This document shows, piece after piece, positions 11,345 to 40,935 of a stretch of 64,000 nucleotides of DNA. Source of the stretch: an uncultured Gammaproteobacteria bacterium (GTDB taxonomy: Bacteria; Patescibacteriota; Microgenomatia; CAYSOG01). Numbering within the stretch: position 1 is the stretch's first letter; every line of letters starts with the position of its first letter. The stretch covers positions 6,975-70,974 of the forward strand of contig CAYSOG010000002.1 of NCBI GenBank assembly GCA_964432675.1, written 5' to 3'. The notes under the pieces were generated by a model, which was given only the letters and a program-made list of their open reading frames with translations, was not told the DNA's origin and did no database searches. The translations under genes were made by a program, and so were the position numbers.

Positions 11345-11399
11345 TACTGCAACCATAATTCCTTCACATTCCTTAAAACTTCTGGTATTATTAGCACTA

Positions 11400-13327: not shown

Positions 13328-13385
13328 AGAAAAGAATAGTGTCGTGACACTTACATGCTTCGAGCAATTAGGGAGAAGTTCCTCG

Positions 13386-13440
13386 ATGTACAAGTATTAT
13401 CTATGGTAGTTCTCGCTAATCACTCGAACAATAAAAATTA
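13386..13440 (+). repeat. Repeat copy A in the infC-rpmI intergenic region, ending 8 nt before the rpmI start
   Basis: ATGTACAAGTATTATCTATGGTAGTTCTCGCTAATCACTCGAACAATAAAAATTA. The 29-nt core GTAGTTCTCGCTAATCACTCGAACAATAA recurs in inverted orientation at 33650-33677. Confidence 0.6.
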
Positions 13441-13447
13441 GACTTGT

Positions 13448-13645
13448 ATGCCAAAAACAAAGAATAAAAAAGCGATTGTAAAACGTGTCAAAATTACCTC
13501 AAGTGGTAAGATAATGCGACGCAATCAATTAATGAACCATTTGAAAAATAGTAAAAGTGCGGCTCGCGTTAGGCGCCAGCAAGAGCCAAAACAGCTCGAC
13601 GGTGTCGACCTAAAGCGCGTCAAGCACCTACTGCCATATAGCTAA
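13448..13645 (+). CDS. rpmI: 50S ribosomal protein L35
   Basis: MPKTKNKKAIVKRVKITSSGKIMRR... matches the bL35 family. Confidence 0.9.
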   Translation: MPKTKNKKAIVKRVKITSSGKIMRRNQLMNHLKNSKSAARVRRQQEPKQLDGVDLKRVKHLLPYS

Positions 13646-13716
13646 ACTCATGAAGCACGAATCTTGTAACATATAGCATTTAAAATACAAAAAAGTTTCA
13701 AGTATAAGATAAAAGT

Positions 13717-14058
13717 ATGAGAGTTAAAACTGGAATAGTCCGCCACGCGAAACACAAAAGAGTCCTTGCAAAAACCAAGGGTTATTGGGGCTCGCGGTCA
13801 AAAACAATCAAGTCTGCGAAAGAAAGCATGTTCCACTCTGGCGAGTACGCCTTCGCTGGCCGCAAACGCAAAAAGCGCGACTTTCGCAAAAGCTGGATTA
13901 TAAACATCAACGCGGCTTTAACGCCGACTGGTATGTCCTATTCCAAATTCATCCATGCACTTAAGGATAAAAATATTGAACTAAACCGCAAAACTTTAGC
14001 CGATCTAGCCCAAAACGACCCCAAAGCTTTCCAAAATATCGTTTCTTCTGTAAAATAA
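13717..14058 (+). CDS. rplT: 50S ribosomal protein L20
   Basis: MRVKTGIVRHAKHKRVLAKTKGYWGSRSK... matches the bL20 family. Confidence 0.9.
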   Translation: MRVKTGIVRHAKHKRVLAKTKGYWGSRSKTIKSAKESMFHSGEYAFAGRKRKKRDFRKSWIININAALTPTGMSYSKFIHALKDKNIELNRKTLADLAQNDPKAFQNIVSSVK

Positions 14059-14066
14059 TCCGCCAT

Positions 14067-14105
14067 AAGCCCCTATTACAAAGCAGGGCTTTTCTTTATA
14101 ATTTT
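14067..14105 (+). terminator. Rho-independent terminator of the infC-rpmI-rplT operon
   Basis: AAGCCC ... GGGCTT stem followed by TTCTTTATAATTTTT. Confidence 0.55.
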
Positions 14106-14125
14106 TCTGCTGTACAATAACGCGC

Positions 14126-15280
14126 ATGGCAAATTTTGAACGCATAACCCCACAAACTACAACGCTTTTTAGCAATGAAGACAAAGAAATTATGAACGAT
14201 TTTCGTCGACTTGACGCAGTCGAATCGGGCGAAGAACCACTGCCACTTTTACAGGAACCATTTGTGCTACAGTTTGCGAGGCTGTTAGCAACGTCGCATG
14301 ATCCGAGTGAACTTGTTCAATTCTGTGAACAAGACTATCCAGCCTACTATCAACAAGCAGGAGAATTTTTGTCACAAGCATCCCAAACTGCAAAAGATCG
14401 AGTGCATAAAGATCCACAATCGCATCAATCCCAAAACTTGTTACTTGAACGTTATAGCAGAATGCTCACCAGGCTTGACCGTGAACTTGCGGTGCCCCAA
14501 AATCTCCACCTGTTGGTTACATTTCGTAATGACCATATAGCAACTGATAAAAGTGAAGAAAAAGAAGCAAAAGTAGTGGAAGAATTTTATCAAGATTTAT
14601 CTTCAATATTCAGACCAAGCCAAAAAAATATACTTATAATAGAAGAACGATTTGAATGGCCAAAGTATCGCAAGAAATTTTACCAGGCAAGAGAGCAAAC
14701 TGGTTCATACGTTGCTGCTGGGATCGCACTAAGCCAGCTGTTAGATAGTCAATACTATTTCAATCCTTTTCTAGCGCCGCTTGACCGGTTTGACCAATCA
14801 TACGAAGTCAAAGTCGAATTTATGCAATCACCGGGGGAACAAGCGGCTGGTGACCAAATGCTGCGCATAGCCCAAGCTAAAACATTGCATGCCTTTAAGC
14901 AGGCCTGCATTAACGCAGAAAAGCTAAATGAACGTCGAGTTTCAACGATTGCAAATATGATTAACAAAGAAGTACAAGAAACCGAAGGCGAAACAAATAT
15001 CGTTTATTTACTGCCGACAAAGGACATGGGTATCGAACGCGTACTACATCCACGTCTTAAACCAATAACAACATATCTAAACCGGAAATCTATGTTCGAA
15101 GAAAACTCAGTGTATTACATCTCGGATATTGCTTATAATAACCCGGACAACACTGATGACATAGCGTGGCAAAAAGCTTATGATACCTTTCTTAAAATTC
15201 GCACAGGGCTGACAGCATATTTTCGTCAATTTGCTGAAATGTACGATGAGCTTGATATGTTTTATCGATCTGGCTTCTAA
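14126..15280 (+). CDS. hypothetical protein (384 aa)
   Basis: Long ORF. I did not recognise any family. Confidence 0.55.
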   Translation: MANFERITPQTTTLFSNEDKEIMNDFRRLDAVESGEEPLPLLQEPFVLQFARLLATSHDPSELVQFCEQDYPAYYQQAGEFLSQASQTAKDRVHKDPQSHQSQNLLLERYSRMLTRLDRELAVPQNLHLLVTFRNDHIATDKSEEKEAKVVEEFYQDLSSIFRPSQKNILIIEERFEWPKYRKKFYQAREQTGSYVAAGIALSQLLDSQYYFNPFLAPLDRFDQSYEVKVEFMQSPGEQAAGDQMLRIAQAKTLHAFKQACINAEKLNERRVSTIANMINKEVQETEGETNIVYLLPTKDMGIERVLHPRLKPITTYLNRKSMFEENSVYYISDIAYNNPDNTDDIAWQKAYDTFLKIRTGLTAYFRQFAEMYDELDMFYRSGF

Positions 15281-15358
15281 ACCCCTCAGTTTACAATTGT
15301 ACTATAAGCTTGTAAAATACCCATTGCACGTTAAAATGTTCTGCTAGGGGAGTAGGCA

Positions 15359-15847
15359 ATGGCAAGCGTTGTACTTTGCATCACACAGGAAAGTGAAAAA
15401 TTTGGTACATCTATACCGGAAGAAGCGCTCGGCCTCCTGCATTGGTTCTTCCCGAGACTTTCAATTTCCTATCATGACGAGCATGTAGGTCATATCGGCT
15501 ATGATTGTTTGCACCCGCGCCTTGTTGGGGATAAACCTGTTATTGAAGAAGCATTATCATGGCTAAAAAAGCAACGATGTGAATTTGATGACGACATAGA
15601 ACTCACCGACTATAAAGTATCAAAGACCGATTTTGAAGAACAAGTTCTCATTGAGACTAAAGCACTTTTTACACTGCTTGGTATGCCCTCGATCACAGAA
15701 CAACTCGAAGAAAGACTTTCTGATACGAAAGAAGCCAGTACTGTTCAGTTAGAAACCGAGTCGTTTGTCCAAAAGCTACATGAACTTGGTGTCTGGGAAA
15801 ATCTCTTAGCTTTTACACCTACAGATCAAATTCAACTCCGTAATTAG
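15359..15847 (+). CDS. hypothetical protein
   Basis: 162-aa ORF. Confidence 0.5.
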   Translation: MASVVLCITQESEKFGTSIPEEALGLLHWFFPRLSISYHDEHVGHIGYDCLHPRLVGDKPVIEEALSWLKKQRCEFDDDIELTDYKVSKTDFEEQVLIETKALFTLLGMPSITEQLEERLSDTKEASTVQLETESFVQKLHELGVWENLLAFTPTDQIQLRN

Positions 15848-15865
15848 GTATATTGTAAAGGAGAA

Positions 15866-16213
15866 ATGGGCTTGAATTTTCCATTGGTTCCAGCGCCACC
15901 GATTTTTGGCTCTGATCATGAATTAGTAATGGAATTAGTATTACTCGGAGGAGTAATTATTGCGGTGTGGTTCTTATCTGGATGGCTTGTATCATATGCA
16001 CTTATTCCGTTACTTGAAGGTCGGCGATTAGAAAATATGTCGCAAGCAAAATTAGGCATTGCAGGTCTTATTTTTGCAGCCACCGGACTGGTATTTGGTG
16101 CATGGACCTTATTCCTCATCTTGCCAGCAGTTGGAGTATATACTTTATATCTCTTTGTCAAAATAATGCAATTTGTACTGCACCCTTTTCCAAGGCGAGA
16201 TAGGCATTGTTAA
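15866..16213 (+). CDS. small membrane protein (3 TM helices)
   Basis: Hydrophobic ORF with AAAGGAG RBS. Confidence 0.5.
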   Translation: MGLNFPLVPAPPIFGSDHELVMELVLLGGVIIAVWFLSGWLVSYALIPLLEGRRLENMSQAKLGIAGLIFAATGLVFGAWTLFLILPAVGVYTLYLFVKIMQFVLHPFPRRDRHC

Positions 16214-16218
16214 TTTTT

Positions 16219-16250
16219 GGCCTCGGATTTATCCGAGGCCTTCTTTTTTG
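16219..16250 (+). terminator. Rho-independent terminator for the plus-strand gene of a convergent pair
   Basis: GGCCTCGG ... CCGAGGCC stem followed by TTCTTTTTTG. Confidence 0.7.
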
Positions 16251-16263
16251 CTTTTTAAAGCAT

Positions 16264-16294
16264 AAAAAACCCACCTTACTAAAAGCAAGGTGGG
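16264..16294 (-). terminator. Rho-independent terminator for the minus-strand CPBP gene
   Basis: CCCACCTT / AAGGTGGG stem, followed by TTTTTT on the minus strand. Confidence 0.6.
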
Positions 16295-16315
16295 AAAGAA
16301 TAGTTACAGAATATC

Positions 16316-17095
16316 TTAGAAACGCAATAATAATTTTACTGCCAGTGTAATAATAACCAGCAATGTAGTGATAATGCTCAAAACAAGCATCCCACATATC
16401 GTCAGGTTATATGTGGTATGGATCACTGCTGACCCAACTAACGCTGCCTGTTGCGACTTTGTCCGTTTAAAATAATACAGATAGCAGATCATTAACCCAG
16501 CGCCACCGGCGCACAGTGCAAGTGATGCTCCAAGAGGAACAATAAGCATCGAGAGGTGTATAAGGCCAAATGAAATACAACTTTTAACCTTTTGTACAAG
16601 TGTCCAATTTTCACAGCCTGCCCGGAAAAGAATTTCTTCACGCATGGCGAACTTTGGCAAATTTCTTCCCACAAATAATGGGTTGCCAATAACGCTTAAG
16701 ATATAATCCTTATAAGTAAGAAGTAGGAAAACTTCAGCGTAAAGCAAATATCTTTCCAGGTGAAGGCGTCGATGGACAGCAAGCCCAAGCAGAAAATTAA
16801 CACCAGAAGATGTGCCAGTTAAAATACTGTATTGCATGAATGGGATTTTAGCAACCAAATACCAAAGCCCAATGACTATTGCTACGAGCAAAATGCAAAC
16901 GAGCACGTGCCTCTTTTTAAAACTTGCCCGATAGTCTGGCCAGGAAAGCTCGGCAGATGGCAAACTTCGGTCTGGCAATAAACGCAAAAAGAAATCTTGG
17001 TACACTTTTTGCAGCTTCCCAAGCTGCTTTGCTATTCGGTAATCAGGCCGAAGTTGCTGCAAATCCTTACCTCTATCTGAATTGTGTATGTGCAA
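16316..17095 (-). CDS. CPBP-family (CAAX protease / Abi) intramembrane metalloprotease
   Basis: Motifs EEILFRAG (EExxxR), FGLIHL (FxxxH) and HTTYNL (HxxxN) in a multi-TM protein. Confidence 0.7.
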   Translation of the reverse strand: MHIHNSDRGKDLQQLRPDYRIAKQLGKLQKVYQDFFLRLLPDRSLPSAELSWPDYRASFKKRHVLVCILLVAIVIGLWYLVAKIPFMQYSILTGTSSGVNFLLGLAVHRRLHLERYLLYAEVFLLLTYKDYILSVIGNPLFVGRNLPKFAMREEILFRAGCENWTLVQKVKSCISFGLIHLSMLIVPLGASLALCAGGAGLMICYLYYFKRTKSQQAALVGSAVIHTTYNLTICGMLVLSIITTLLVIITLAVKLLLRF

Positions 17096-17229
17096 TGTGC
17101 CTTAAAGCCAATGAAGTATAACAAAATGAGCAAATACTTTCAAGGTCGCCGCAAAGTCAAAATAGATGAAGCTGTAATTTATTGCTTGCTAAATAAGCAA
17201 AAATACTTTATCATTTTTTACAGGATACC

Positions 17230-18033
17230 ATGAGAAAAGAGCATCTTATTTCCATTGTTGTGTTAGCAATTTTATTGGTTGCGGTTGCGCTCTACGTCGT
17301 ACGGTATGCAAGCCGGCAAAACCGCATGGCGCAAACAACACAATCCACGGCAAGTGCAACGCAAACAGGCATTCAATCAACACAAGCTACCTTAAACCAA
17401 GCAGACAACACCGGCAAGTATAAGGTTGCCATTGTATATCCACAATTTTCTGGTTTTACCAATAGCCAAACCCAAGACCAAGTTAATAATTCGATCAAGG
17501 CCTTAATGCAAAGCCAAGCAGATGCCTTTATTAAAGGCGTTAATGCAACACAGCAAAGTTCGTCCATGCCGCAATTTATGCGCGATGCCCAAAGCGAATT
17601 CACAACGCAATATACTGTAGCCCAGGCTTCTAACAAGGTAATCTCTGTAGTATTTACTGTATTTAATAGTACGGCCGGCATGGCGCACCCTGATACAACG
17701 TACCTTACCTTTAATTACGATGTTGCCGCAAATAAGCAGTTACAATTGGCTGATGTTTTTAAGCCTGGATCAAATTATTTACAAACTATTTCCAGTATGG
17801 CCCAGAAACAATTGTTAGACCAACAAAAAGACAATCCAAATGCTAAGGCGTTAGTTGACCAAGGCACTACTGCTAAAGCCGATAATTTTGCTCTTTTTAG
17901 CCTTGAACCCACAAATCTTGTGCTGCTCTTTAACCCAGCGCAAGTCGCGCCTCGAGTAAACGGCCCAATGAAAGTAACAATACCGTATAAAGATATTGCT
18001 ACTATTACAAACCAAAACCTCGTATCGCAATAA
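17230..18033 (+). CDS. membrane-anchored DUF4163/DUF3298-like protein of the RsiV/PdaC N-terminal family
   Basis: TM anchor, then YKVAIVYPQFSGFTNSQTQDQVNNSIKAL..., a pattern typical of that family. This is assigned by motif, not by a search. Confidence 0.45.
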   Translation: MRKEHLISIVVLAILLVAVALYVVRYASRQNRMAQTTQSTASATQTGIQSTQATLNQADNTGKYKVAIVYPQFSGFTNSQTQDQVNNSIKALMQSQADAFIKGVNATQQSSSMPQFMRDAQSEFTTQYTVAQASNKVISVVFTVFNSTAGMAHPDTTYLTFNYDVAANKQLQLADVFKPGSNYLQTISSMAQKQLLDQQKDNPNAKALVDQGTTAKADNFALFSLEPTNLVLLFNPAQVAPRVNGPMKVTIPYKDIATITNQNLVSQ

Positions 18034-18139
18034 ACTACCTTCTCTTTATCTTCAAGCTAAATTAATACTTTTCTAAGACTAAAATGCCTAAAATAATGGC
18101 GTTAACTAACGTTCTCATAACTTAGGAGGTGGTAAACAT

Positions 18140-18355
18140 ATGGCAAGGAAACAGTCAGCAAGAACCAGGGGTGTTGCTCAGCGCATCAAAGGCAAAGCCC
18201 AAAAACTAAAAGGCAAAGTCGAGAAAAATATGGGCCATCCAGTACAAGGAACTTTTGACGAGGTAAAAGGGACGTTTAACGACACCGTTGGCAAAATAAG
18301 GCAAGACCACGAAAGTGACACTGATAGCGAAGGTATTTACGAAGATACCTGGTAG
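18140..18355 (+). CDS. CsbD-like general stress protein
   Basis: Lysine-rich repeats (KGKAQKLKGKVEKNMG...VKGTFNDTVGKIRQD). Strong RBS AGGAGGTGG. Confidence 0.65.
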   Translation: MARKQSARTRGVAQRIKGKAQKLKGKVEKNMGHPVQGTFDEVKGTFNDTVGKIRQDHESDTDSEGIYEDTW

Positions 18356-18376
18356 TGTCATTTTTGCAAAAGAAAA

Positions 18377-18406
18377 ACAGAGCAGGAAAATGCCTGCTCT
18401 GTTTTG
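18377..18406. terminator. bidirectional Rho-independent terminator
   Basis: ACAGAGCAGG ... CCTGCTCTGT stem. TTTTG follows on the plus strand and TTTTTCTTTTG on the minus strand, so it sits between two convergent genes. Confidence 0.65.
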
Positions 18407-18424
18407 ATGGTATGACATATAATG

Positions 18425-18790
18425 TCAAGATTGCGCGATCGCCGGTGGTGGCAAGAGTAATGCCATTGAGTTCCAAAGTGCTAGGGTAATTTTATGCACC
18501 TGCTCGAGCGTTACCCATTTGCTTTCGGCAATTTCCGCTGGATGAAAGGAGCGTCTGACCAGTTCTTCTACAACAGCCTGCGTGATCGGCTGGATTAGTG
18601 CAAATATTTCCTCTTCAGCCTTAAGCGCTAAAAAGCGCCTGGCATATTCAGTATATTCGTCGGGATTGCAGTCCTCACCAAAGTAAATCTGCAGCGGGTC
18701 AACGGAGTTATAGGCATCGAGTACAATGCGCGCCTGTTGGCCATAGTCCTCAATAAGTTTATAGACTTTCGTCCACGGGCTATACACCAT
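18425..18790 (-). CDS. hypothetical protein
   Basis: 121-aa ORF. Confidence 0.5.
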   Translation of the reverse strand: MVYSPWTKVYKLIEDYGQQARIVLDAYNSVDPLQIYFGEDCNPDEYTEYARRFLALKAEEEIFALIQPITQAVVEELVRRSFHPAEIAESKWVTLEQVHKITLALWNSMALLLPPPAIAQS

Positions 18791-18960
18791 GCTTTTCCTC
18801 CTTGCGATTTTGTCGGTGCAAGCTCATTTATCCGCAAAATGAGCGGCTGGCACGTTTCCGTATCGCGACAGTACTGCTATTTTATCACTGGACAGAATTA
18901 TTATCAACCTATAGTTATTCTCATTTCAATGGCGAATTCAAATAAAGCGAGGTGAGAAGT

Positions 18961-19842
18961 TTAGTCAAAAACAAGATAGTCTTTTTGGCCGTTTAAAATA
19001 TTGCGGCTATCCCAATCATGGATCGAGGCAAATAACCCTTGGTAGGTGTATTGAAAACTATTGCCTTGGCGAATGCCAACATCGTTGGTAATAAAGATGC
19101 CGGGAACCATACTGCAGCTTACAGTATCTATACTACGGCATTTTTTAGGGTCAATCACTGCTTTATCATCGTAGCCTTTAATAACCAGCATGTGGTAATT
19201 TGGCCCACCGTTTTTAAAATAGGGGTTTGGGAGGATTTTACCGGCAGCACCAACAATCACCGGGTGACTTTTGGCAATTTCTTGCTTTATTGTAGCGATT
19301 GTTGCGTTTTGGACAACATGACCGTTTAATCCATAATACTGTTTGGCAATATCCGCTAATTGCTGCAAGGTGATACTTAATCCATAGCCATTTTTTGTTT
19401 CAAATGAAATAAGATTTTGAATTTCATTTTCTCCATCATCAAGGTTTGCTGGAACTTTTCCCTGCAAAAAGTAGACTACATTCAAAAGGCTTGCTTCCTC
19501 ACAAGCATCTTCATGCAACGCATCCCAGTTTGCGTGCGGGGCTTGAACTAAGAAAGGAACATTGAGTGTTTTCGCTGCTAATATGGCTGATGACGTCGCG
19601 ACAGAATGTGGCGTCGGTTTTAAAATGGCGGAAGGAACAGATTGTTGGGTAGGGGAGGGGATTGGCGTTGTGCGAACGATAGGTGGTAGCTTCTGTGTCG
19701 CACGCTGAGCTGCCTGTTCTGGTAATACAACTTTCAAAATAACGATAACGTCAAGCAGGGCGATAATAGCAATAATAATTTTACGCATATGTTTGCCCAA
19801 ACGTTTTGGCATACGTATTATCCTACCATACCTAGACAGCAT
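18961..19842 (-). CDS. membrane-anchored putative papain-like (C39-like) cysteine peptidase
   Basis: N-terminal TM, a Pro-rich linker, then a candidate Cys (EDACEEASLLNVVYF) and a downstream His/Asp (NYHMLVIKGYDD). The true start may be an internal Met. Confidence 0.4.
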   Translation of the reverse strand: MLSRYGRIIRMPKRLGKHMRKIIIAIIALLDVIVILKVVLPEQAAQRATQKLPPIVRTTPIPSPTQQSVPSAILKPTPHSVATSSAILAAKTLNVPFLVQAPHANWDALHEDACEEASLLNVVYFLQGKVPANLDDGENEIQNLISFETKNGYGLSITLQQLADIAKQYYGLNGHVVQNATIATIKQEIAKSHPVIVGAAGKILPNPYFKNGGPNYHMLVIKGYDDKAVIDPKKCRSIDTVSCSMVPGIFITNDVGIRQGNSFQYTYQGLFASIHDWDSRNILNGQKDYLVFD

Positions 19843-19928
19843 CTATAATTATCTGATAAGATTTGGCAAGAAGGAACGGTTTGGCAATCTGTGCTTTGCG
19901 AGCTAATCCGTGGTTTTTACCTTAAATA

Positions 19929-20969
19929 TTGCATAAATTTATGGAAAAAAAGCTACTTGCGCTTAAAGAAAAGTCAGTAAAGGAAGTCCAAGGTACCAAA
20001 GATGCGAAGGCACTCGAAACCGTTCGTATTCGAATATTTGGGTCAAACGGCACATTAACTCACGCCATGAAAGAATTGCCGAAACTGCCAAAGGCCAAGC
20101 GGCCAAAAGTAGGTAAGCTCATTAATGAAATAAAGCAGGAATTGCAACATGCCATTGCTGAGAAACAGCAAAAGTTACAACAAAAACGGAAAGTTTCAGT
20201 TGACATCACAGTACCTGGTATTCAACCAAATATTGGCCATCTACACCCGATAACGAAGGCCATATGGGACATTGGCGATATTTTTAAGCGTATTGGATTT
20301 GAAGTTACCGACACCAGGGAAATTGAAACCGATTGGTACGCTTTTGGAGCGCTTAATTTTCCTGTTAACCATCCTGCGCGTGACGAATGGGAAACCTTTT
20401 TTCTTGAAACGAATAACCTTAAATTAAATACTGATGACAAAATCGTTCTGACGCCGCACACGTCCTCTGCTCAAGTGCGGGTAATGGAAAAAGAAAAGCC
20501 GCCAATTCGTAATATTACCATTTCAAAATGCTACCGCCGACAAGCCGATGTTTCGCACTTGCAAATGTTCCATCAATTTGAAGGTATTTTTGTCGATACA
20601 AACGTTTCAATTGCTAATTTAAAAGGTACGCTCGATTATTTCGTTATGCAATATTTTGGACGTGATCGAGTTACCCGAATAAGGCCATACGATTTCCGTT
20701 TCACGGAACCGTCATTTGAAGTTGACGTCACCTGCGCAAACTGCAATGGCAGGGGTTGCCGCTTGTGTAAGCAAGGATGGCTAGAACTCGGCGGCGCTGG
20801 TATGATCCATCCAAACGTCCTACACAACGGGGGGTTGGACCCTGAAATATTTTCCGGCTTCGCTTTTGGCTGGGGTGTCGAGCGCGTTTGGATGATGAAA
20901 AGCGGTATTAAGTTACCCGACATCCGCCAAATTTATTCCGGTGACCTAAGATTTAATCAACAATTTTAA
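19929..20969 (+). CDS. pheS: phenylalanyl-tRNA synthetase alpha subunit
   Basis: Class II motifs (FQFEGIFVD, GAGMIHPNVL, FGWGVERV). It carries a Cys4 insertion (CANCNGRGCRLC). Confidence 0.9.
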   Translation: MHKFMEKKLLALKEKSVKEVQGTKDAKALETVRIRIFGSNGTLTHAMKELPKLPKAKRPKVGKLINEIKQELQHAIAEKQQKLQQKRKVSVDITVPGIQPNIGHLHPITKAIWDIGDIFKRIGFEVTDTREIETDWYAFGALNFPVNHPARDEWETFFLETNNLKLNTDDKIVLTPHTSSAQVRVMEKEKPPIRNITISKCYRRQADVSHLQMFHQFEGIFVDTNVSIANLKGTLDYFVMQYFGRDRVTRIRPYDFRFTEPSFEVDVTCANCNGRGCRLCKQGWLELGGAGMIHPNVLHNGGLDPEIFSGFAFGWGVERVWMMKSGIKLPDIRQIYSGDLRFNQQF

Positions 20970-20978
20970 ACATGTAGC

Positions 20979-23009: not shown

Positions 23010-23136
23010 TTAATTACTGCCTTGTAATCCCATAGCATTCACGCTATACTATTTTCTTACAATCCAGTCATTGCTGAACATTAAAAATCCTAAGAGGCTC
23101 CAGGTATGTAAGGTACAGTCAAAAAGGAGTAGGGGT

Positions 23137-23496: not shown

Positions 23497-23520
23497 CCAG
23501 GCAAGTCTTGGTTTTCTTAT

Positions 23521-23556
23521 ACACCGTAACAGTAATAATGTTGCGGTGTTTTTTAT
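23521..23556 (+). terminator. Rho-independent terminator
   Basis: ACACCG ... CGGTGT stem followed by TTTTTTATT. Confidence 0.55.
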
Positions 23557-23559
23557 TGG

Positions 23560-26154: not shown

Positions 26155-26385
26155 AATGAGCAGCCCAAAGAGACTTTGGTTCTATTTCTTATTCTAGCAT
26201 GCCAGACCAACAATTGTCTGTGAGGCTCATTTCTGGTAGAATTGACAATGAAAAGTAAAATTGCTAACTTTTCTTTATCATCATAATCTGGCTTACTAGC
26301 CTGAGAACAATTGCATGGAGTTACAACAATTACTCAGCTTAACAAGCTCCCAGCGGGAGCCAAACAGTTTAGGTAACGGTCTGAA

Positions 26386-26400
26386 GGAAAATTTTTTAGT
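26386..26400 (+). repeat. Leader half of the inverted repeat flanking tRNA-Tyr
   Basis: GGAAAATTTTTTAGT. It is complementary at 14 of 15 positions to the trailer ACCAAAAAATTTTCC (26473-26487), so the 7-bp acceptor stem could extend to about 22 bp. Confidence 0.6.
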
Positions 26401-26476
26401 CCAGGGTTGGCAGAGCGGTTGATGCGCGGGTCTGTAAAACCCGTTTAGCCTGGTTCAACTCCAGGGCCCTGGACCA
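26401..26476 (+). tRNA. tRNA-Tyr (anticodon GUA), class I with a short variable loop and encoded CCA
   Basis: Folded by hand. The acceptor CCAGGGT/GCCCTGG has a C1-G72 pair, the discriminator is A73, and 3-prime CCA is encoded. Anticodon stem CGGGT/ACCCG with loop CTGTAAA. The variable loop TTTAG is 5 nt. T-arm CCTGG-TTCAACT-CCAGG. Confidence 0.85.
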
Positions 26477-26487
26477 AAAAATTTTCC
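26473..26487 (+). repeat. Trailer half of the inverted repeat flanking tRNA-Tyr
   Basis: ACCAAAAAATTTTCC pairs with the leader at 26386-26400. Confidence 0.6.
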
Positions 26488-26661
26488 TGCGAGAGCTTCA
26501 CACTACTGAAATTACTGTATCAGTAGTACTCCATTCCCTAAAACTATCATATCTTAGAAGCGACTCCTATCTGTAGGACATCACCCTATAGTACTTGCAA
26601 AATATTTCGATATCGAGTAGACTATCTCTTCAGTAGTACACTAACAAATAGGAGGTGTGGT

Positions 26662-27045
26662 GTGGCCACGCAATCAACCCCTCATTTGTGGGAAGTAAAA
26701 CATCCCTATTATTGCGACCAAAGCGATGACAATAAAGAATATGATTCATGGGATGACTTTGTAAACGAGGTGCAGAACCAAGCTCAGGACTACGATCCAC
26801 AGCGTAACCTGATATTTAGGTGGGATTGGATCTCACCAGACAGTCCTGATTATGAGGCTGACCTTTATAGCGATGGCTACACTGGTGACAGACTTACATT
26901 GTTTGTTGTTCTGCAACGAAAGGCTAGGGTAGCAAGCTGGGAAATTAAGGTTACAAAAGAAAACGAACAGGCAATTAAATCTTGGTTGTCCGAACGGGCC
27001 AAGCATATTACTGCACTCTGGACACCAATCCAAATTGCTTCGTAA
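26662..27045 (+). CDS. hypothetical acidic protein (127 aa)
   Basis: GTG start 5 nt after AGGAGGTG. A terminator follows. Confidence 0.55.
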   Translation: MATQSTPHLWEVKHPYYCDQSDDNKEYDSWDDFVNEVQNQAQDYDPQRNLIFRWDWISPDSPDYEADLYSDGYTGDRLTLFVVLQRKARVASWEIKVTKENEQAIKSWLSERAKHITALWTPIQIAS

Positions 27046-27063
27046 AAAAGCAATAAAAACTAT

Positions 27064-27095
27064 AGCCCCCTCCATTTTGCAGGGGGCTTTTTTAT
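27064..27095. terminator. bidirectional Rho-independent terminator
   Basis: AGCCCCCT ... AGGGGGCT stem with T-runs on both strands, between two convergent genes. Confidence 0.7.
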
Positions 27096-27175
27096 GGTTA
27101 TTTTTTCTTAATTAACGGATAGAAAACAAAAGTGAAGAGAGTATTGGCAATCTTTAAAGCATGACTAATTTCTGG

Positions 27176-29884
27176 TTACTTGGACAAAAAATAGTCATTC
27201 CCGAATGCCTTTGTAAAGGCTTGGGTATTGGCTTTAGTGTTGTTAACTGTCCAGTCGATGTCACCGTCTTTGGTATTGAACCAGACGACTGCTTTAATTG
27301 CCGGGTGTTTTTCGATATAACCGGCTAATAACTGCATCCATTGTCCCTTCGATTGCCCCGGCACGTTAGAATCGGCGCTGGCTGTTTCGGTAATTATGAT
27401 AGGCTTATTGAATTTTTCAATATCAGAAACCGTTGGCGAAAACATTGCTGTAGGCGTTCGAAACCCATTGTTTTTGTAATAACCGTTCCAGTTAAACGAG
27501 CTGACACCAACCCAGTCAACATAGTTATCTCCTGGATAAAATGCATCGATATTTGACGAATAAGGAACCTTTTGTTCGTCATACTTTTCATTTGGTGACC
27601 ACACCCAAGTAACATTAGTTGCACCAACTGATTGGAATATGTCATGGACATGTTGCCATGCCGCGATATATTCCTGCGGCGTATTATACGTGCTACCCCA
27701 TGGATACCAATTACCATTCATTTCATGGGCAAACCGTATCATAACCGGCTTTCTGTACGCTTTAACATCTTTTGCATACTGGGTGATGTAGGCATCATAT
27801 AAGCCTTCCGAAATTAGTTTCATGCGATATTGCTGTTGGTTGGCATCGTTGTCGCTTCTGTTATACCCATTAACCGGTTGCCAAGGTTCCCAAGTAACCA
27901 TTGGTATCGAGTTTTGGCTTGCAATATAATTTGACCACTGTTGGTTGAAGCGGTTATCTTTAACGCCCCAAGCTTGGTAATAGCCAACAATCGCGAAATT
28001 CTTGCCGAATTGGTTCTGTAAGCCCACAAGGGCATCACTGTCATTATGGTTATAAAGGGAAACGCCTACGAGTGAGCCTTCATTTGGCTCCTGGACTTTG
28101 CCCGCTAACGGCGTATTGCTGGTGGTAAATGTCGCTACTGTAAACGATGGTGCAAAGAAAGCTTCAGCCAACTTCGCCCGATCTGTGTAGGCAAAAGCCA
28201 AACTAACCATGACGACACAGGCAAAGCTAAAGCTCACCCCATACCGTATCAGCCGCCAGGCTATTTGATATGACGTAAGGTAAGCATAGACGCCATCCCA
28301 ATAAATACTGAGCGATACCGCGAGCAAAGTAAGAACGTTAAAAAGTGCCCAAAAACGTAGTTGGACCGCGCCGTGGTTTTGGATACAACTGACGATAAGC
28401 GCATATGCTGTTAAGGAGATAAGGATAAGATGTGGCAAAAACGTTTTAACGGGTACCCGTTGTTGTTTTGCGGTACTGCCTTTTTGGGTTACCATATAGC
28501 GCAATTTGATACCGGTAATGAAATTAAAAAAGGCAATGGCATAGATAATGTTCGCGCCAAGGTTTAAGAACATACCAAGCGGCCCTAATAACGGTTCGTT
28601 TTCCGGGTCAATTTGGAAGCGATGGGTATAAAGCTGAATAACATTGGCTAGCAAGAATGGTGGAAAAGAATAGGCAAGCCATTGTTGCAATTGCATATTC
28701 GCATCACGAAGGCCAAACAATAGATAAAGTACTGTCAAGAATATGCCAAACAGAACGGCAAGGCCAGTAAAGTAATAGAGTTGCGCCAAGCAGTAGTTAA
28801 TTTTTTGTTTCAATGGTAAATGCCAAACAATTCTCGGTGTATGTTTGAATAATATTTCAAACAACCCATAGCTCCAGCGCATTTGCTGATTAAAATAGTC
28901 TACCCAATTTAAAGGTCCTTCGCCCTTGGCAATAATTTCTGGCACAAAAACACCCTTATAACCGTATTTGTAAAATAACATGCCGGTTAAATGGTCTTCT
29001 ACAATAGTCGGCGCATAGCCGCCAATTTTTTTCATCGCAGAAGCCCGATAAATATGGCTTGTCCCTATTAAAAATGGCATGTCACAACCGTAAAAGCCTT
29101 GCTGCATTGGCCCATGAAAGAAAAATGACTGCTCACCGGCACCCCGGGCAATCCAGTTTTCAGTGTTCTTATAAAACTGTGGTGTGCCGACAAAACCAAC
29201 TTTTTCATCACGAAAGTAACCAAGTGTCCGTTCAAAAAATTCAGGTTCCGGCACATGGTCCATGTCTATCTGGGCGACAATATCATAACTATCTTCGTGC
29301 TTATCACGCCAGGCATTGTGGTTACCCGCTTTTGTCTTGGTACGGTATATGCCAGATTCCTGGTTATACTTTGCAATACCTTTTCTTGAAAAATGTTTAA
29401 CTCCTAAGCGTTCGCATAAGGCCTTCACTTCTTTATCATTGCCTTCATCCAATACCCACGTATCGTGTGGATAGCGAACCTTAAGCATGGCACATAGGGT
29501 GTCTGAAAGCATGTCCAAAGGTTCCTTACCGGGTACATAGCAGGTTAAAAAGGCAACACGAAGCCCTTTTTGAGGCCGTAAGTACTTTGGTTTTGCCATA
29601 AACCACAAGGCAAACCAACTAGCAACGCGCAAAAGCATGCCCAAAAAGACAACTGAAGAAACGATTATGAAAAGAATAAGGTCAAATGCGTGGGATGATA
29701 AAATACTGGTTCCTTGAAAGTTTTGGGGAATATGCTCTGGCTTAAACCACCATAATGCATAACGGATGACAAAAAAGAAACCTAAACTGATTAAGCCGGC
29801 ATAAACTGCCCGCTGTTTTTTAGTAAAGACAGCGACCTTTTCAACAGACACAGTATTGGTGGGTTGACGTTTCTTAAATAGCAT
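27176..29884 (-). CDS. Membrane-embedded family-2 glycosyltransferase (processive, cellulose-synthase-like) fused to a C-terminal extracytoplasmic GH26-like (clan GH-A) glycoside hydrolase domain
   Basis: Two N-terminal TM helices, a GT2 core with DxD-type motifs and QQMRW (QxxRW), a further block of TM helices, then a hydrolase domain with RFAHEMNGNWYPWG, WVWSPNE and IIITETA. Confidence 0.75.
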   Translation of the reverse strand: MLFKKRQPTNTVSVEKVAVFTKKQRAVYAGLISLGFFFVIRYALWWFKPEHIPQNFQGTSILSSHAFDLILFIIVSSVVFLGMLLRVASWFALWFMAKPKYLRPQKGLRVAFLTCYVPGKEPLDMLSDTLCAMLKVRYPHDTWVLDEGNDKEVKALCERLGVKHFSRKGIAKYNQESGIYRTKTKAGNHNAWRDKHEDSYDIVAQIDMDHVPEPEFFERTLGYFRDEKVGFVGTPQFYKNTENWIARGAGEQSFFFHGPMQQGFYGCDMPFLIGTSHIYRASAMKKIGGYAPTIVEDHLTGMLFYKYGYKGVFVPEIIAKGEGPLNWVDYFNQQMRWSYGLFEILFKHTPRIVWHLPLKQKINYCLAQLYYFTGLAVLFGIFLTVLYLLFGLRDANMQLQQWLAYSFPPFLLANVIQLYTHRFQIDPENEPLLGPLGMFLNLGANIIYAIAFFNFITGIKLRYMVTQKGSTAKQQRVPVKTFLPHLILISLTAYALIVSCIQNHGAVQLRFWALFNVLTLLAVSLSIYWDGVYAYLTSYQIAWRLIRYGVSFSFACVVMVSLAFAYTDRAKLAEAFFAPSFTVATFTTSNTPLAGKVQEPNEGSLVGVSLYNHNDSDALVGLQNQFGKNFAIVGYYQAWGVKDNRFNQQWSNYIASQNSIPMVTWEPWQPVNGYNRSDNDANQQQYRMKLISEGLYDAYITQYAKDVKAYRKPVMIRFAHEMNGNWYPWGSTYNTPQEYIAAWQHVHDIFQSVGATNVTWVWSPNEKYDEQKVPYSSNIDAFYPGDNYVDWVGVSSFNWNGYYKNNGFRTPTAMFSPTVSDIEKFNKPIIITETASADSNVPGQSKGQWMQLLAGYIEKHPAIKAVVWFNTKDGDIDWTVNNTKANTQAFTKAFGNDYFLSK

Positions 29885-29952
29885 TACATTACTATCAACT
29901 ATAGGTCGAAATTATACACTATTATAGGATAAAAGTCAACAGAATGAAGAGC

Positions 29953-31119
29953 TTAAAAGGAAGGCCGGTATATCGGAGAAGAAATCGAAGAAATAAACAA
30001 ATTAAGTGTACTTGGTGATATGTCTATAAGCCAATTTACGTTTTCTTGTTGTGACCGATCTTCGTTGTAAAAGACAACTGCTTGGATATGGGGGAAATTT
30101 GCGGGCACTTGCACTTGGAGCATATCTTTATACCAAGTACTTTTATCGCCACCGCGATCAGTCGTATTAACTTCGGCTAGCATAATTGGTTTAGTAGGGG
30201 AGAGGGCAATGAGTTCATTGTACGGCTCTCGGAAAACAGTTGCAAAGCTTTGCCATTGGCTCCATGACTGTGTGGTACCCCAGTTATATCCATCCACACC
30301 AAGCCAGTCAACGTTGGCATCCCCAGGATACAATGTTTTATAAGGAATACTTTGGTCATTCCCTTTATTGGGTGCAAAAACCCACAACACTTTGGTGGCA
30401 TTCTCAGAAGCAACGATCGAATGAAAACGTTGCCAAGCTGCTATAAAATCTTCTGGGGTATCATGAGTTTGCAGTGGACTCCAGGCAGTTGTTGGTAAGT
30501 TCATTTCCCAGGCAAACCGTAAAAAGATTGGCTTGTTAAATGTTGCTAAATTATGACCCACGGTATGTAAGAATGCGTCACAATTGCCATTTGCAATCGC
30601 TTTATAAAGGCTCAAGCCATTACTCTGGCACTGCGAAAAAAAGTATGGATTAATACTTAGCATCGGCCGCCAGCCATATTGGGTAATGGTGTTAAGCTCA
30701 CCGACAATAGCATCGGAGGCCAGTGCGTCCCATCCCCGATAGTAATGTGCAATAGCAACATGTTTCCCGATTTTTTGTTCGACCAATTGTAATTGATCAG
30801 GGTGTAGTGTTTTTGCATTGTCGTCCCAAAAACCCTGCGTCCACATGCCAAGATAAACCGCCCTGGTAGTCTCTACTGGCGGCTTAAGAGCTACCAGCTT
30901 ATTCGCTGGCGCAATACTAGCAACAGATTGCGTAGGGCTCGGTGTAGTCGCTATGGCTTCGCCTCTAACCGCTGGTGAAAATGTCGGAAAGTTACCGGCG
31001 CTCATAGGAGTTGTCGCACGATACTTACCGTACCATAGCACTGAGGTTACCCCAACGAGCAAAACAAAAGCTGTAAACAAAATAAGATGCTTGGGAAGCA
31101 TCATCCGTGAAAATCTCAT
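29953..31119 (-). CDS. secreted or membrane-anchored GH26-like glycoside hydrolase, paralog of the C-terminal domain of the upstream fusion
   Basis: Signal-anchor, then RFAWEMNLPTTAWSP, LWVFAPN and IMLAEVNTTD motifs parallel to the fusion protein's hydrolase domain. Confidence 0.7.
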   Translation of the reverse strand: MRFSRMMLPKHLILFTAFVLLVGVTSVLWYGKYRATTPMSAGNFPTFSPAVRGEAIATTPSPTQSVASIAPANKLVALKPPVETTRAVYLGMWTQGFWDDNAKTLHPDQLQLVEQKIGKHVAIAHYYRGWDALASDAIVGELNTITQYGWRPMLSINPYFFSQCQSNGLSLYKAIANGNCDAFLHTVGHNLATFNKPIFLRFAWEMNLPTTAWSPLQTHDTPEDFIAAWQRFHSIVASENATKVLWVFAPNKGNDQSIPYKTLYPGDANVDWLGVDGYNWGTTQSWSQWQSFATVFREPYNELIALSPTKPIMLAEVNTTDRGGDKSTWYKDMLQVQVPANFPHIQAVVFYNEDRSQQENVNWLIDISPSTLNLFISSISSPIYRPSF

Positions 31120-31227
31120 CTCCTTTTATGACCTTCATAATACATTTGTAAACCGAATGCAACCAAAAAATTTTGCGGTTGCATTTTTATTCCAGATTGC
31201 AGTAGAGTAGACAAAAGGAGAATTTTT

Positions 31228-31686
31228 ATGACGAAACAAATTGCCATTATCAGTATTTTGTGCCTATCTCTTACCGCTTGTAGCTTAGGTATTCGCAGCC
31301 GACTCAAAAGCCTAACCGGCACGGCTGCTTCACCAACGGCTAGCGTATCACCAACAACATCTGCAATGGCTTCAGCAAGCAGCGCTGCGATGCAGGCCAC
31401 AACAGCACCACAGTCGAAAACTACCATAACATATACGTCTAGTGGTTTCTCGCCGGCAACACTCACCATCAAGGCAGGTGACAGTGTTACATTCGTTAAT
31501 CATGCAACAGGTGACGTCCAAGTGAATTCCGACCCACATCCGACACATACACTGTATCCAATGCTTAATATCGGTGTTATTACAGCCGGATTATCGTCTG
31601 ATCCAGTAGCCTTCACAAAGGCGGGCACGTACACCTATCATAACCACCTAAACCCAGCCCAAAAGGGGACAATTGTCGTCCAATAG
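31228..31686 (+). CDS. lipoprotein with a cupredoxin-like beta-sandwich domain
   Basis: Lipobox LSLTAC, an Ala/Ser/Thr linker, then a C-terminal domain (TLTIKAGDSVTFVNHATGDVQVNSDPHPTH...GTYTYHNHLNPAQKGTIVV). There is no Cys ligand, so copper binding is doubtful. Confidence 0.45.
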   Translation: MTKQIAIISILCLSLTACSLGIRSRLKSLTGTAASPTASVSPTTSAMASASSAAMQATTAPQSKTTITYTSSGFSPATLTIKAGDSVTFVNHATGDVQVNSDPHPTHTLYPMLNIGVITAGLSSDPVAFTKAGTYTYHNHLNPAQKGTIVVQ

Positions 31687-31745
31687 AGGCCTTGCTTAGG
31701 CAGTAATGCTCCTAGTCTATGGTACAATAGCTTGGGAGAAATGGT

Positions 31746-31949
31746 ATGGTGTGGCTAACTGTTTACAAAAAAGTATTTTCACCACTTTTTTATAGCTTGG
31801 GGTTTCGTTGCCGATTTGAACCGAGTTGTTCGGAATATTTTCAACAGGCTACCCAAAAGTACGGGCCATTTAGAGGTTCAGTAAAAGGCATGTGGCGAAT
31901 TTTACGCTGTAATTCATTCAATCCTCATTTCGGCTATGACCCAGTGTAA
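31746..31949 (+). CDS. yidD: membrane protein insertion efficiency factor YidD
   Basis: [10 protein letters not shown]...[17 protein letters not shown] is the YidD signature. Confidence 0.8.
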
Positions 31950-31957
31950 GCTGGCTG

Positions 31958-32461
31958 GTGATCCCGCCTTCGCTAATTCCACAGACTTGCGCGATAACAG
32001 CAAAACTTGCTACAATTTTCGCTATGGCTATAGAACGTGCACAACAAATTCCAATTGAAGACATTACAGAACTTGTTCATCTTGCAGGCGGCGAAACTGC
32101 CGGACCAATGGCTGACGAAATCGACCAGATCAACTGTTATGCTGGGCTGGTAGTCGGTGTCGCCTCAATCCAAGACGAGCAATGGCAATCAACGGGATAC
32201 TGGAAAATTACTTTAGATTCTGGCCTAATCATTACAAGCAGCTCATATCGCGCCCAAAACTGCTTATTAGACGATCGTGTTAGGTTTTTCGAGCTGCCTG
32301 AAGATGCTGACTGTTACACGGAATATGAAAAAACAAACCATGTTGGTATTTCTATAACACGACATGGCACTTACGTTGACATCATGCATGTTGCTCGCGA
32401 GCAAATAATATTACCGCAACCACAAACCGCTGACGAAAATACCCGCACGTCACCAGATTAA
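31958..32461 (+). CDS. hypothetical protein
   Basis: 167-aa ORF. The start may be the internal Met (MAIERAQQ). Confidence 0.5.
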   Translation: MIPPSLIPQTCAITAKLATIFAMAIERAQQIPIEDITELVHLAGGETAGPMADEIDQINCYAGLVVGVASIQDEQWQSTGYWKITLDSGLIITSSSYRAQNCLLDDRVRFFELPEDADCYTEYEKTNHVGISITRHGTYVDIMHVAREQIILPQPQTADENTRTSPD

Positions 32462-32464
32462 GGC

Positions 32465-33628
32465 TTGTTTCTTTTAAAAATCCCATTTACAATGAGGGCT
32501 ATGACGCAAGAAGAAAAGCGCGCACTTATCACCCGAAATCTTGACGAAGTTCTAACTCCCGAAGAATTAAACCACCTTTTATCTACAAATACTCCCTTAA
32601 AACATTACATCGGTTTTGAGCTATCCGGACAAATCCACATTGGCCAAGGGCTCGTGACTGCCATGAAGATAAAGGATTTCCTTGACGCCGGCGTTGACTG
32701 CACTATCTACTTAGCCGACTGGTTTAGTTGGATTAATGATAAGCTAACCGGCGACTTAGACATTATCCAAAGCGTTGGGGTTGCATATTTTAAAAATGGG
32801 TTTACAGCCTGTTTGCAAGCCCTAGGCGCTGACCCAACGAAGGTCCACTTCGTTACGAGTACTGAGTTGTACAAAAACAGGTTAGACTATTGGCAAAGTG
32901 TTATTGAAATTTCAAAAAATACTACGTTGGCTCGCATGATGCGGTCGGTTTCGATCATGGGACGCACTGAAGGCGAGGGTATGGACTTTGCCAAGCTTAT
33001 TTATCCGCCAATGCAGGCAGCCGACATCTTTCTTTTACAAGCCAACCTAGCGCATGCCGGTATGGACCAACGGAAAGCCCACGTTATTGCCCGTGACACT
33101 GGTTTACAAATTAAAACGAATAAACTAACTGATGCCAAAGGCGAACAGATCAAACCCGTGGCCTTGCACCATCATCTTCTTTTAGGCCTAACGCCGCCAC
33201 CAAAATGGCCAATGGCCAAGGAAGAATTACAGCAAGCACTTTCAGAAATGAAGATGTCAAAGTCAAAGCCTGGGTCTGCCATTTTTATTACCGATGAGCC
33301 AGAAGAAATCCGCCAGAAACTAACCAAAGCCTTTTGTCCAGAAAAGGAAACTGTATACAATCCTGTGCTAGATTGGACTAAGCATCTTATATTTCCCCTT
33401 CGTAACGGTATCCAGATAAATCGTGACGAAAAATTCGGAGGAAATGTGTCGTATTCGTCCTACCAAGACTTAGAAAAGGATTTCCAAGAAGGCGCACTAC
33501 ACCCAATGGATCTTAAAACTGCAGTCGCCGAAAGTTTAATCGAAACTCTCGCGCCAATACGAGACTACTTTAGTAATGACCCAGCTAAATCAACCTTAGA
33601 CAATCTCAAGAAAATTCTCCAATCCTAA
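32465..33628 (+). CDS. tyrS: tyrosyl-tRNA synthetase of the archaeal/eukaryotic type
   Basis: Class I aaRS with a HIGH-like motif (GQIHIGQG) and KMSKS. It aligns along its length with the Methanocaldococcus jannaschii TyrRS as I recall it: HYIGFELSGQIHIG vs AYIGFEPSGKIHLG; IYPPMQAADI..GMDQRKAHVIARD vs IYPIMQVNDI..GMEQRKIHMLARE; EKFGGNVSYSSYQDLEKDF..ALHPMDLKTAVAESLIETLAPIR vs EKFGGDLTVNSYEELESLF..ELHPMDLKNAVAEELIKILEPIR. The Tyr-specifying Y and D are conserved. The true start is probably an internal Met (MRAMTQ or MTQEEK). Confidence 0.85.
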   Translation: MFLLKIPFTMRAMTQEEKRALITRNLDEVLTPEELNHLLSTNTPLKHYIGFELSGQIHIGQGLVTAMKIKDFLDAGVDCTIYLADWFSWINDKLTGDLDIIQSVGVAYFKNGFTACLQALGADPTKVHFVTSTELYKNRLDYWQSVIEISKNTTLARMMRSVSIMGRTEGEGMDFAKLIYPPMQAADIFLLQANLAHAGMDQRKAHVIARDTGLQIKTNKLTDAKGEQIKPVALHHHLLLGLTPPPKWPMAKEELQQALSEMKMSKSKPGSAIFITDEPEEIRQKLTKAFCPEKETVYNPVLDWTKHLIFPLRNGIQINRDEKFGGNVSYSSYQDLEKDFQEGALHPMDLKTAVAESLIETLAPIRDYFSNDPAKSTLDNLKKILQS

Positions 33629-33640
33629 GTAATGTCATTG

Positions 33641-33727
33641 TATTTTTATTATTGTTCGAGTGATTAGCGAGAACTACTGAGATAGAGAAGTATTACATTA
33701 CGTAGTTCTCGCTCCATGTGTACATTG
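33641..33727. repeat. Palindromic repeat copy B downstream of tyrS, carrying a perfect 12-bp inverted repeat
   Basis: AGCGAGAACTAC (33666-33677) and GTAGTTCTCGCT (33702-33713) flank a 24-nt loop. The left arm contains the reverse complement of the copy A core (TTATTGTTCGAGTGATTAGCGAGAACTAC). The right arm resembles copy A in forward orientation (GAGAAGTATTA...GTAGTTCTCGCT...TGTACA). Confidence 0.6.
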
Positions 33728-40911: not shown

Positions 40912-40935
40912 CTTCGTGCAGCAAAAATAAATTCA

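Follow-up and report, generated by a model that had tools for sequence, protein, structure and literature searches.

Probable relics of a nuclease-linked hairpin repeat in the rpmI leader and downstream of tyrS in a Patescibacteria-like contig

Ssn proteins are single-domain GIY-YIG proteins of ~94 amino acids (CDD cd10448) that bind oriented hairpin repeats and cut single-stranded DNA (ssDNA) just upstream of these repeats (Chenal et al., Nat Commun 2025, PMC11893778). They are inactive on double-stranded DNA, on RNA and on the complementary strand. Their repeats comprise NTS (CGTCATTCCCGCGMAVGCGGGAATCYRG) and the broader SRM class, have copy numbers in the hundreds and flank the ssn gene in the order NTS-ssnA-NTS. 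In Neisseria, Ssn/NTS modulates natural transformation, and the authors liken the system to repetitive extragenic palindromic (REP) elements and the REP-associated tyrosine transposases (RAYT), while UPF0213, YhbQ and Patescibacteria are not mentioned in that paper (PMC11893778). The present analysis concerns a stretch of 64,000 nt from contig CAYSOG010000002.1 (GenBank assembly GCA_964432675.1; hereafter the window), in which a short hairpin repeat lies in the leader of rpmI and recurs downstream of tyrS. We regard it as reasonably probable that these two loci are relic doublets of an Ssn/SRM-like, ssDNA-acting hairpin repeat, the partner of which would be a GIY-YIG nuclease of the YhbQ/UPF0213 type.

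The repeat unit is an oriented hairpin of ~30-45 nt, 5'-TATT-[C/G]TTC-GA-(h)-GA-GAA[G/C]-T, in which h is a variable stem-loop. Its orientation is given by two asymmetries, the TATT flank and GA/GA versus TC/TC. Two classes exist with the closing base pair swapped, namely the C-class unit (ATTC-TTCGA...GAGAA-GT) and the G-class unit (ATTG-TTCGA...GAGAA-CTAT). The two classes lie on opposite strands and form tail-to-tail or head-to-head doublets and alternating arrays, the longest of which hold ~17 units in 7.5 kb of locus L012, and units also occur singly.

The family is abundant in the candidate phyla radiation (CPR)/Patescibacteria and in some other uncultured lineages. An exact 20-mer from the arm was found in 19 metagenome contigs from several projects, and a partner unit adjoins the G-class unit in at least 17 of these 19. 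A gapped doublet pattern was present in at least 118 stretches of metagenome-assembled genomes (MAGs) from a species-representative genome collection, and several MAGs carry units on many separate contigs. By record title, these stretches are mostly CPR/Patescibacteria (Paceibacterota, Saccharibacteria, Curtiss-, Gottesman-, Davies-, Roizman-, Levy- and Berkelbacteria, and Moraniibacteriota), the other labels being Omnitrophota, Auribacterota, Eisenbacteria, Actinomycetota and 'uncultured Gammaproteobacteria/Pseudomonadales'. Many of the copies with non-CPR labels have a second GA/GA layer (TTCGA-GCGA-h-GAGTC-GAGAA). A strict scan counted 408 units, 336 of them with the TATT 5' flank, in 1.01 Mb of fetched loci (L numbers), most of which had been chosen for containing units, so that the apparent density is inflated. 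The 24-mer with the GTAG prefix had no match in the scan of genome contigs, because this prefix is specific to the window and most other copies have ATAG or differ otherwise. A match in L049 (Marinilabiliaceae) was rejected as a member of the family, being a chance match within a coding region.

A sequence-only reading of the window had described a palindromic core in front of rpmI that recurs inverted at 33.65 kb, and this recurrence is real. The 29-mer GTAGTTCTCGCTAATCACTCGAACAATAA has exactly two copies in the window, at 13406-13434 on the plus strand and at 33649-33677 on the minus strand, and none of 100 dinucleotide-preserving shuffles contained a match, even at 3 mismatches. The perfect 12-bp stem ascribed to a partial forward copy at the second locus was recovered as well; it pairs AGCGAGAACTAC (33666-33677) with GTAGTTCTCGCT (33702-33713) across a 24-nt loop, the latter position on the plus strand being the third exact copy of the 12-mer GTAGTTCTCGCT. 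The core does lie upstream of rpmI, and its distance, given earlier as 8 nt, is corrected here, the core ending 13 nt before the ATG at 13448. The two loci further have in common a direct repeat of 59 nt, D6 of the repeat finder (13359-13417 and 33655-33713, 73% identity), which makes each locus an inverted doublet of a single smaller hairpin unit.

Doublet 1, at rpmI, consists of a degenerate left unit and an intact right one; in doublet 2, at tyrS, an intact left unit is followed by a right unit of which 12 nt are left. The inverted 29-nt match is that of the right unit of doublet 1 against the left unit of doublet 2, and the 29-mer itself is one G-class unit in which h is GTGATTAGC. The left unit of doublet 1 has the core C-TTC-GA-GCAATTAGG-GA-GAA-G (13358-13378), with the TATT 5' flank gone and the inner G-C pair broken. 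Its right unit, which includes the 29-mer, reads TTTATT-G-TTC-GA-GTGATTAGC-GA-GAA-C-TACCAT on the minus strand. The class-I Tyr/Trp tRNA synthetase gene is followed, 20 nt past its stop codon, by the left unit of doublet 2, ATTATT-G-TTC-GA-GTGATTAGC-GA-GAA-C-TACTGA. The remnant that follows, GTAGTTCTCGCT, is the reverse complement of AGCGAGAACTAC and retains the GAGAAC-TAC half alone, unrelated sequence standing in place of the TTCGA half. The spacers of both doublets contain AAGTATTA. Folded as DNA or as RNA, both doublets form long imperfect hairpins (z -1.2 to -2.6 by strand and molecule).

A covariance model of 112 units, R1, was applied with its filters switched off. It scores three units over the 64-kb window; these units were in its training set, so that their match is by construction, and the informative part is that nothing else in 64 kb scores. 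The bare expression TTCGA..GAGAA is unspecific in the window (5 matches versus 3.0 in shuffles), and the flanks and the closing pair are needed. Both window copies are most likely passive relics without a specific role in the expression of rpmI or tyrS, given a degenerate partner in the one and a truncated partner in the other. They look like decaying, lineage-specific insertions and not like operon-specific regulators.

The folded architecture of the family is marked by compensatory changes. When complementarity was not imposed, the closing pair among 388 units was C-G in 189 and G-C in 182, with C-C in 2 and G-G in 1. Standard pairing is seen at the first pair of h in 94% of 253 distinct units (G-C 153, A-T 54, C-G 15, T-A 7, G-T 8); with shuffled partners, the share is 64%. 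The length of h ranges from 7 to 39 nt, and long h folds at -5.0 kcal/mol versus -2.3 kcal/mol for its own shuffles. In alignment A2 (112 sequences), the closing-pair column of which was selected for complementarity so that the 388-unit tally is the unbiased count, 94.8% of the cells are paired versus 78.5% in shuffles, a value reached by 0 of 500 shuffles. With the partners slid, at most 55% are paired, and the covariation score is 0.405 versus 0.135. A compensated apical hairpin of variable length between the invariant TTCGA and GAGAA therefore means that a folded single strand is the working form, and it excludes a double-stranded site of fixed spacing.

Among the clustered open reading frames (ORFs) of the related loci, one GIY-YIG subfamily of 82-90 amino acids is directly bracketed by units. 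Within unit-selected loci, units stand on both sides of 5 of the 7 subfamily copies, as against 5 of 899 other ORFs. Because these loci were pre-chosen for units, an independent test was made on contigs picked by protein homology alone. Units abut the gene in all six distinct contigs (L139, L140, L142, L144, L145 and L147), at both gene ends or at the one visible end. In each of the six, the TAG stop codon of the gene is the 'TAG' of the downstream G-class unit (...TAG/TTCTC-h-TCGAACAATA), and upstream of the ATG a C- or G-class unit ends 0-20 nt away. That a repeat supplies the stop codon suggests joint propagation of the gene and its repeats, as a minimal element, selfish or domesticated, that would act on ssDNA.

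The subfamily protein has 241 close homologs at E<=1e-10; among the 120 matches listed, all are at least 68% identical, and the named source organisms among them are Patescibacteria lineages. Its members match Pfam GIY-YIG (PF01541) with 52-55 bits at a cut-off of 22.6, and in 30 sequences the catalytic-type residues Y9, Y19, R29, H33 and E66 do not vary. The subfamily has no NCBIfam model. In a study of gene exchange by Patescibacteria, GIY-YIG genes are among those predicted to have been donated to other bacteria (PMC12455944), which would fit the cross-phylum MAG labels of the repeat.

The distribution of the units fits an element that acts at the DNA level. Units are mostly intergenic (316 of 408, an approximate figure), and their strand and class are unbiased with respect to the orientation of the flanking genes; between co-directional plus-strand genes, the counts are 24 for C-class units on the plus strand and 21 on the minus strand, and 23 and 22 for G-class units. 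Rfam searches at the gathering threshold returned two tRNAs only for the whole window, and at E<=10 only meaningless miRNA, snoRNA and sRNA matches for the L012 array and the rpmI leader; no ribozyme family match was returned by these searches. A hammerhead-like GA core was weighed by eye and rejected. The 3' flanks of the units are variable, with no U-tract after the hairpins, and no terminator-like site is present at 33630-33730. With no strand bias, no Rfam match and no terminator, a sense-strand cis-regulatory RNA does not fit, and a DNA-level element does.

In the mechanism held most likely by analogy with Ssn and NTS/SRM, ssDNA would be the active form, and the hairpin would form in it during replication, transformation or repair. 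The nuclease may recognise the hairpin together with the non-palindromic 5' flank and the GA/GA internal loop, and would then cut the hairpin-bearing strand nearby. Such an activity would let the repeats spread, be maintained, or modulate recombination. A wider proposal is made more tentatively, and we stop a little short of calling it probable: that a YhbQ/UPF0213-type subfamily and the two-class TATT-sTTC-GA-(hairpin)-GA-GAAs repeat constitute a second, undescribed nuclease/repeat partnership parallel to Ssn/NTS, CPR-wide and reaching into MAGs labelled as other phyla.

Several points weigh against relics of a nuclease-linked, ssDNA-acting repeat. No GIY-YIG gene lies within the 64-kb window, and the nuclease link is therefore one by family, not by locus. 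The linkage of gene and repeat does not reveal a direction, and the nuclease gene could be a parasite homing into pre-existing host hairpins. Recognition of ssDNA, and not of RNA or of a cruciform, is suggested solely by the analogy with Ssn and the absent strand bias. The MAG taxon labels, for instance 'uncultured Gammaproteobacteria', are those of the deposited records and may be incorrect for some of the genomes. Besides the inflated density mentioned above, 92 of the 408 units are inside ORFs, and ORF calling was crude, which makes the intergenic fraction approximate.

The alternative that survives best, unlikely as we hold it to be, takes the units as functional hairpins of the host (for instance sites that stabilise RNA or where it is processed, barriers to transcription in both directions, or replication or recombination signals) and the GIY-YIG gene as a selfish homing gene that inserts beside or within them. 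The conservation of the core across many lineages, through compensatory changes and not as near-identical copies, resembles structural selection, and the stop codon embedded in the unit would also fit insertion of the gene into a pre-existing unit. Inverted doublets work in both directions of transcription, which could explain the absent strand bias. Against the host-hairpin reading stand the hairpins' lack of a U-tract and the lack of a terminator-like site at the window loci. No Rfam family is matched, and the copies are not syntenically conserved in the infC-rpmI spacers of the closest relatives. In their degenerate or truncated state, the window copies do not resemble elements under local selection, and the Ssn precedent is that such nucleases act on their own flanking repeats (PMC11893778).

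Mobilisation of the units as REP/REPIN elements by RAYT, an IS200/IS605-like Y1 HUH transposase, is considered a good deal less likely still. The architecture of the units is REPIN/BIME-like, with intergenic inverted doublets and alternating arrays, and RAYT-like genes are indeed present in five fetched loci (L063:2036-2659, L077:6309-7001, L079:188-835, L088:3113-3751 and L114:1719-2348; four of the loci belong to CPR-labelled or unclassified MAGs, and L079 to Gammaproteobacteria). Yet each of the five genes has a different palindrome, unrelated to the units and located on both sides of the gene in four loci and upstream only in L088, and no unit lies within 300 nt of any of them. The gene that units do bracket encodes a GIY-YIG nuclease, not a Y1 transposase. 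The sequence-only reading had suggested a small dispersed palindromic element of the REP or miniature inverted-repeat transposable element (MITE) type; this was correct as to kind but not as to family, since what was found is a large, dispersed and mostly intergenic hairpin family that is not a RAYT-associated REP, and nothing points to a transposon-derived MITE.

The infC-rpmI spacer is the site of E. coli-type L20 control, and the repeat had accordingly been read as a possible L20-binding or other regulatory RNA. In the window this spacer measures 120 nt and is mostly taken up by doublet 1, which folds in the mRNA to a long hairpin (-28.8 kcal/mol, z = -2.2). That doublet 1 is an L20-responsive or translation-regulatory leader of infC-rpmI-rplT, reused downstream of tyrS, is nevertheless very improbable. 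The predicted hairpin stops 19 nt short of the ATG and leaves the start codon uncovered, and neither L20_leader (RF00558) nor any other Rfam family gave a true match to the rpmI leader, be it at the gathering threshold in the search of the whole window or at E<=10. The unit is absent from the infC-rpmI spacers of the three closest relatives, which have the order thrS-infC-rpmI-rplT and L20 proteins 73-77% identical; their spacers of 77-103 nt show no evident similarity, side by side, to that of the window. Moreover, the unit stands beside hundreds of unrelated genes in either orientation, a distribution that renders moot the idea of mimicry of 23S rRNA helix 40-41, the L20 binding site. Compared with L20-dependent leaders (the E. 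coli pseudoknot; Rfam L20_leader RF00558), the likeness comes down to a place in the spacer before rpmI and to a sequence that can fold into a hairpin, and the differences are the missing model match, the lack of conservation in relatives and the dispersal at unrelated genes. The regulatory-RNA reading is not supported, though doublet 1 may modestly affect how stable the mRNA is or how infC and rpmI are coupled. One of the relatives has, in its infC-rpmI spacer without a unit (L149:2138-2240), an inverted repeat of its own, ttattggttcattgttcatagtt ... aactatgaacgaataac, which could be a genuine leader structure.

We give just as little credit to chance similarity or to a MITE with a conventional (DDE) insertion sequence as its parent. 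The terminal inverted symmetry of the doublets would suit a MITE, but single units, doublets and long flank-sharing alternating arrays are unlike a MITE of fixed length, and no transposase is linked to units. Chance, which had been tied to a lack of both other copies and conservation, is excluded by the 0 of 100 shuffles and by hundreds of related copies.

The features of the two loci are collected in Table 1. ORF and Pfam matches agree with the gene context infC-rpmI-rplT and tyrS that had been read from the letters. The window is closest to Patescibacteria MAG contigs, with 46-64% amino-acid identity across several genes.

Table 1. Features of the two repeat loci in the window and of their neighbouring genes (R1 scores of window units are by construction, see text)
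Feature	Position	Strand	Basis
thrS-like ORF	11220-12698		ORF list
infC ORF	12893-13327	+	Pfam IF3_N/IF3_C
Degenerate C-class unit, left half of doublet 1	13352-13384	+	R1 24.5 bits, E=0.0026; regex scan; within D6
Spacer (loop) of doublet 1	13385-13402		D6; tip of long imperfect hairpin in DNA and RNA folds
Intact G-class unit, right half of doublet 1	13403-13435	-	R1 39.9 bits, E=5e-07; exact match
rpmI	13448-13645	+	L35p Pfam match on identical protein of L001
rplT	13717-14058	+	L20 Pfam match on identical protein of L001
Class-I Tyr/Trp aminoacyl-tRNA synthetase gene (tyrS of the sequence-only reading)	32465-33628	+	Pfam PF00579
Intact G-class unit, left half of doublet 2	33648-33680	+	R1 39.0 bits, E=8e-07
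Spacer (loop) of doublet 2	33681-33701		fold
Remnant of partner unit, doublet 2	33702-33713	-	exact 12-mer copy; D6; undetected by R1

The infC ORF, listed from a TTG at 12893, enters the IF3_N profile, 70 positions long, only at position 20, and IF3 of relatives has 152-196 amino acids; the true start is therefore probably upstream of 12893, at a non-canonical codon. A non-canonical start codon is usual for infC. After tyrS, the next called ORF is AdoMet decarboxylase-like and starts at 34013.

Other repeats were seen in the window. A tRNA-Tyr gene (26401-26476) lies within a 22-nt inverted repeat, 95% complementary (26385-26406 / 26467-26488), which takes in ~16 nt of the 5' leader and ~12 nt of the 3' trailer. 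Three paralogous stretches at 39200-42300, with 71-79% identity over 169 nt (D1 and D4), point to a small family of tandem genes on the minus strand. Seven genes at 51600-57700, on the minus strand, have in common a 42-nt motif (D2), the reverse complement of which encodes G-FTLIELLVV, the N-terminus of type IV pilins and pseudopilins, and this is therefore a pilin-like gene cluster. Any link of the window repeats to DNA uptake through this cluster is only speculation. In the related loci, small four-helix-bundle ORFs recur in unit-bearing L035, L058, L067, L071, L089, L100, L120 and L145, not adjacent to units; that of L145 is PF05635 23S_rRNA_IVP / bAvd-like.

For the window, a tempting annotation as L20 operator is removed, and the repeat is explained as dispersed selfish or domesticated DNA. 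The logic of Ssn, a tiny GIY-YIG nuclease with its own oriented ssDNA hairpin, appears to reach beyond the published consensus and probably takes in the YhbQ/UPF0213 branch, outside the protein clade described so far. This logic also seems pervasive among CPR bacteria, the genome dynamics and DNA-uptake biology of which are poorly understood. The units are a defined candidate substrate for an uncharacterised nuclease family and would, if the proposal is true, be the first concrete substrate hypothesis for UPF0213. They may also provide additional specificity for ssDNA-cutting tools.

Among known systems, REP, BIME and REPIN elements resemble the units as short imperfect palindromes with an asymmetry that defines orientation, in intergenic inverted doublets and alternating arrays, and in both systems the repeats flank the gene of a cognate enzyme. 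Recognition of ssDNA hairpins is established for RAYT and IS200/IS605, and is put forward conditionally for the units. The two systems differ in the partner enzyme, which is a GIY-YIG nuclease and not a Y1 HUH transposase, and in the core of the unit, which many lineages have in conserved form; REPs, by contrast, are typically particular to one species.

With regard to the protein, the relatives nearest to the unit-associated nuclease, among those with a solved structure or an annotation, belong to UPF0213/YhbQ (PDB 1ZG2 and 1YWL; E=1.2e-15 for 1ZG2). The E. coli 'DNA damage response nuclease YhbQ' is 34% identical to it and has the QHxSGKG(A/S)K motif in common. The CPR subfamily differs from UPF0213/YhbQ in its distinctive ends, the N-terminus WKWYVYIxEC and the C-terminus FSRKKKEALW. 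Full-text literature searches found no repeat association reported for UPF0213/YhbQ, nor any report of the unit sequence itself.

The same set of loci contains a second GIY-YIG type (L137 5707-5976, L068, L023 and L117), which is Ssn-like and has canonical GTCAT-type SRM flanks; it matches 1ZG2 at E=0.025 and YhbQ with 34 bits. In L117:7312-7757, from a Patescibacteria-labelled MAG, two sites fit the SRM pattern, one on each side of the Ssn-type gene. One of them, TGTCATTCCCGCGAAAGCGGGAATCC, also fits the Neisseria-type NTS core, and the other, TGTCATCCCCGCGTAGGCGGGGATC, is a close variant, and canonical Ssn/SRM is therefore present in CPR-labelled genomes too. The unit-associated nuclease is nearer to UPF0213 (BH0048, 60.6 bits; YhbQ, 56.2 bits) than to the Ssn-type protein of the same loci (40.8 bits), and these pairwise scores suggest that it is probably a sister family or subfamily of Ssn. 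Two related nuclease/repeat pairs thus coexist in these lineages, and the one relevant to the window appears to be a sister of Ssn.

The unit differs from SRM in its flank, TATT and not (C)GTC, in its conserved tandem GA/GA internal loop, and in the existence of two classes on opposite strands with the closing pair swapped. The published SRM consensus, HGTCWYN(0-2)YYVSBRHN(0-5)WNVSBRGN(0-2)RNCYNB, is matched by 0 of the 408 units and has no match in the window. As with Ssn, the partner is a tiny single-domain GIY-YIG protein (~85-95 amino acids), and the order is repeat-gene-repeat, with the gene's own oriented hairpin repeats on either side. As with SRM, the repeats are imperfect palindromes of 20-50 nt with a non-palindromic conserved 5' flank, multi-copy and mostly intergenic, and the hairpin of the unit, TATT-CTTC-GA-G(hairpin)C-GA-GAAG, is similar in architecture to that of some canonical SRMs in the same loci, GTCAT-TC-AGA-G(hairpin)C-GAA-GAAT. 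The pair of unit and nuclease is likened to Ssn in every respect tested, yet is distinct from the published system.

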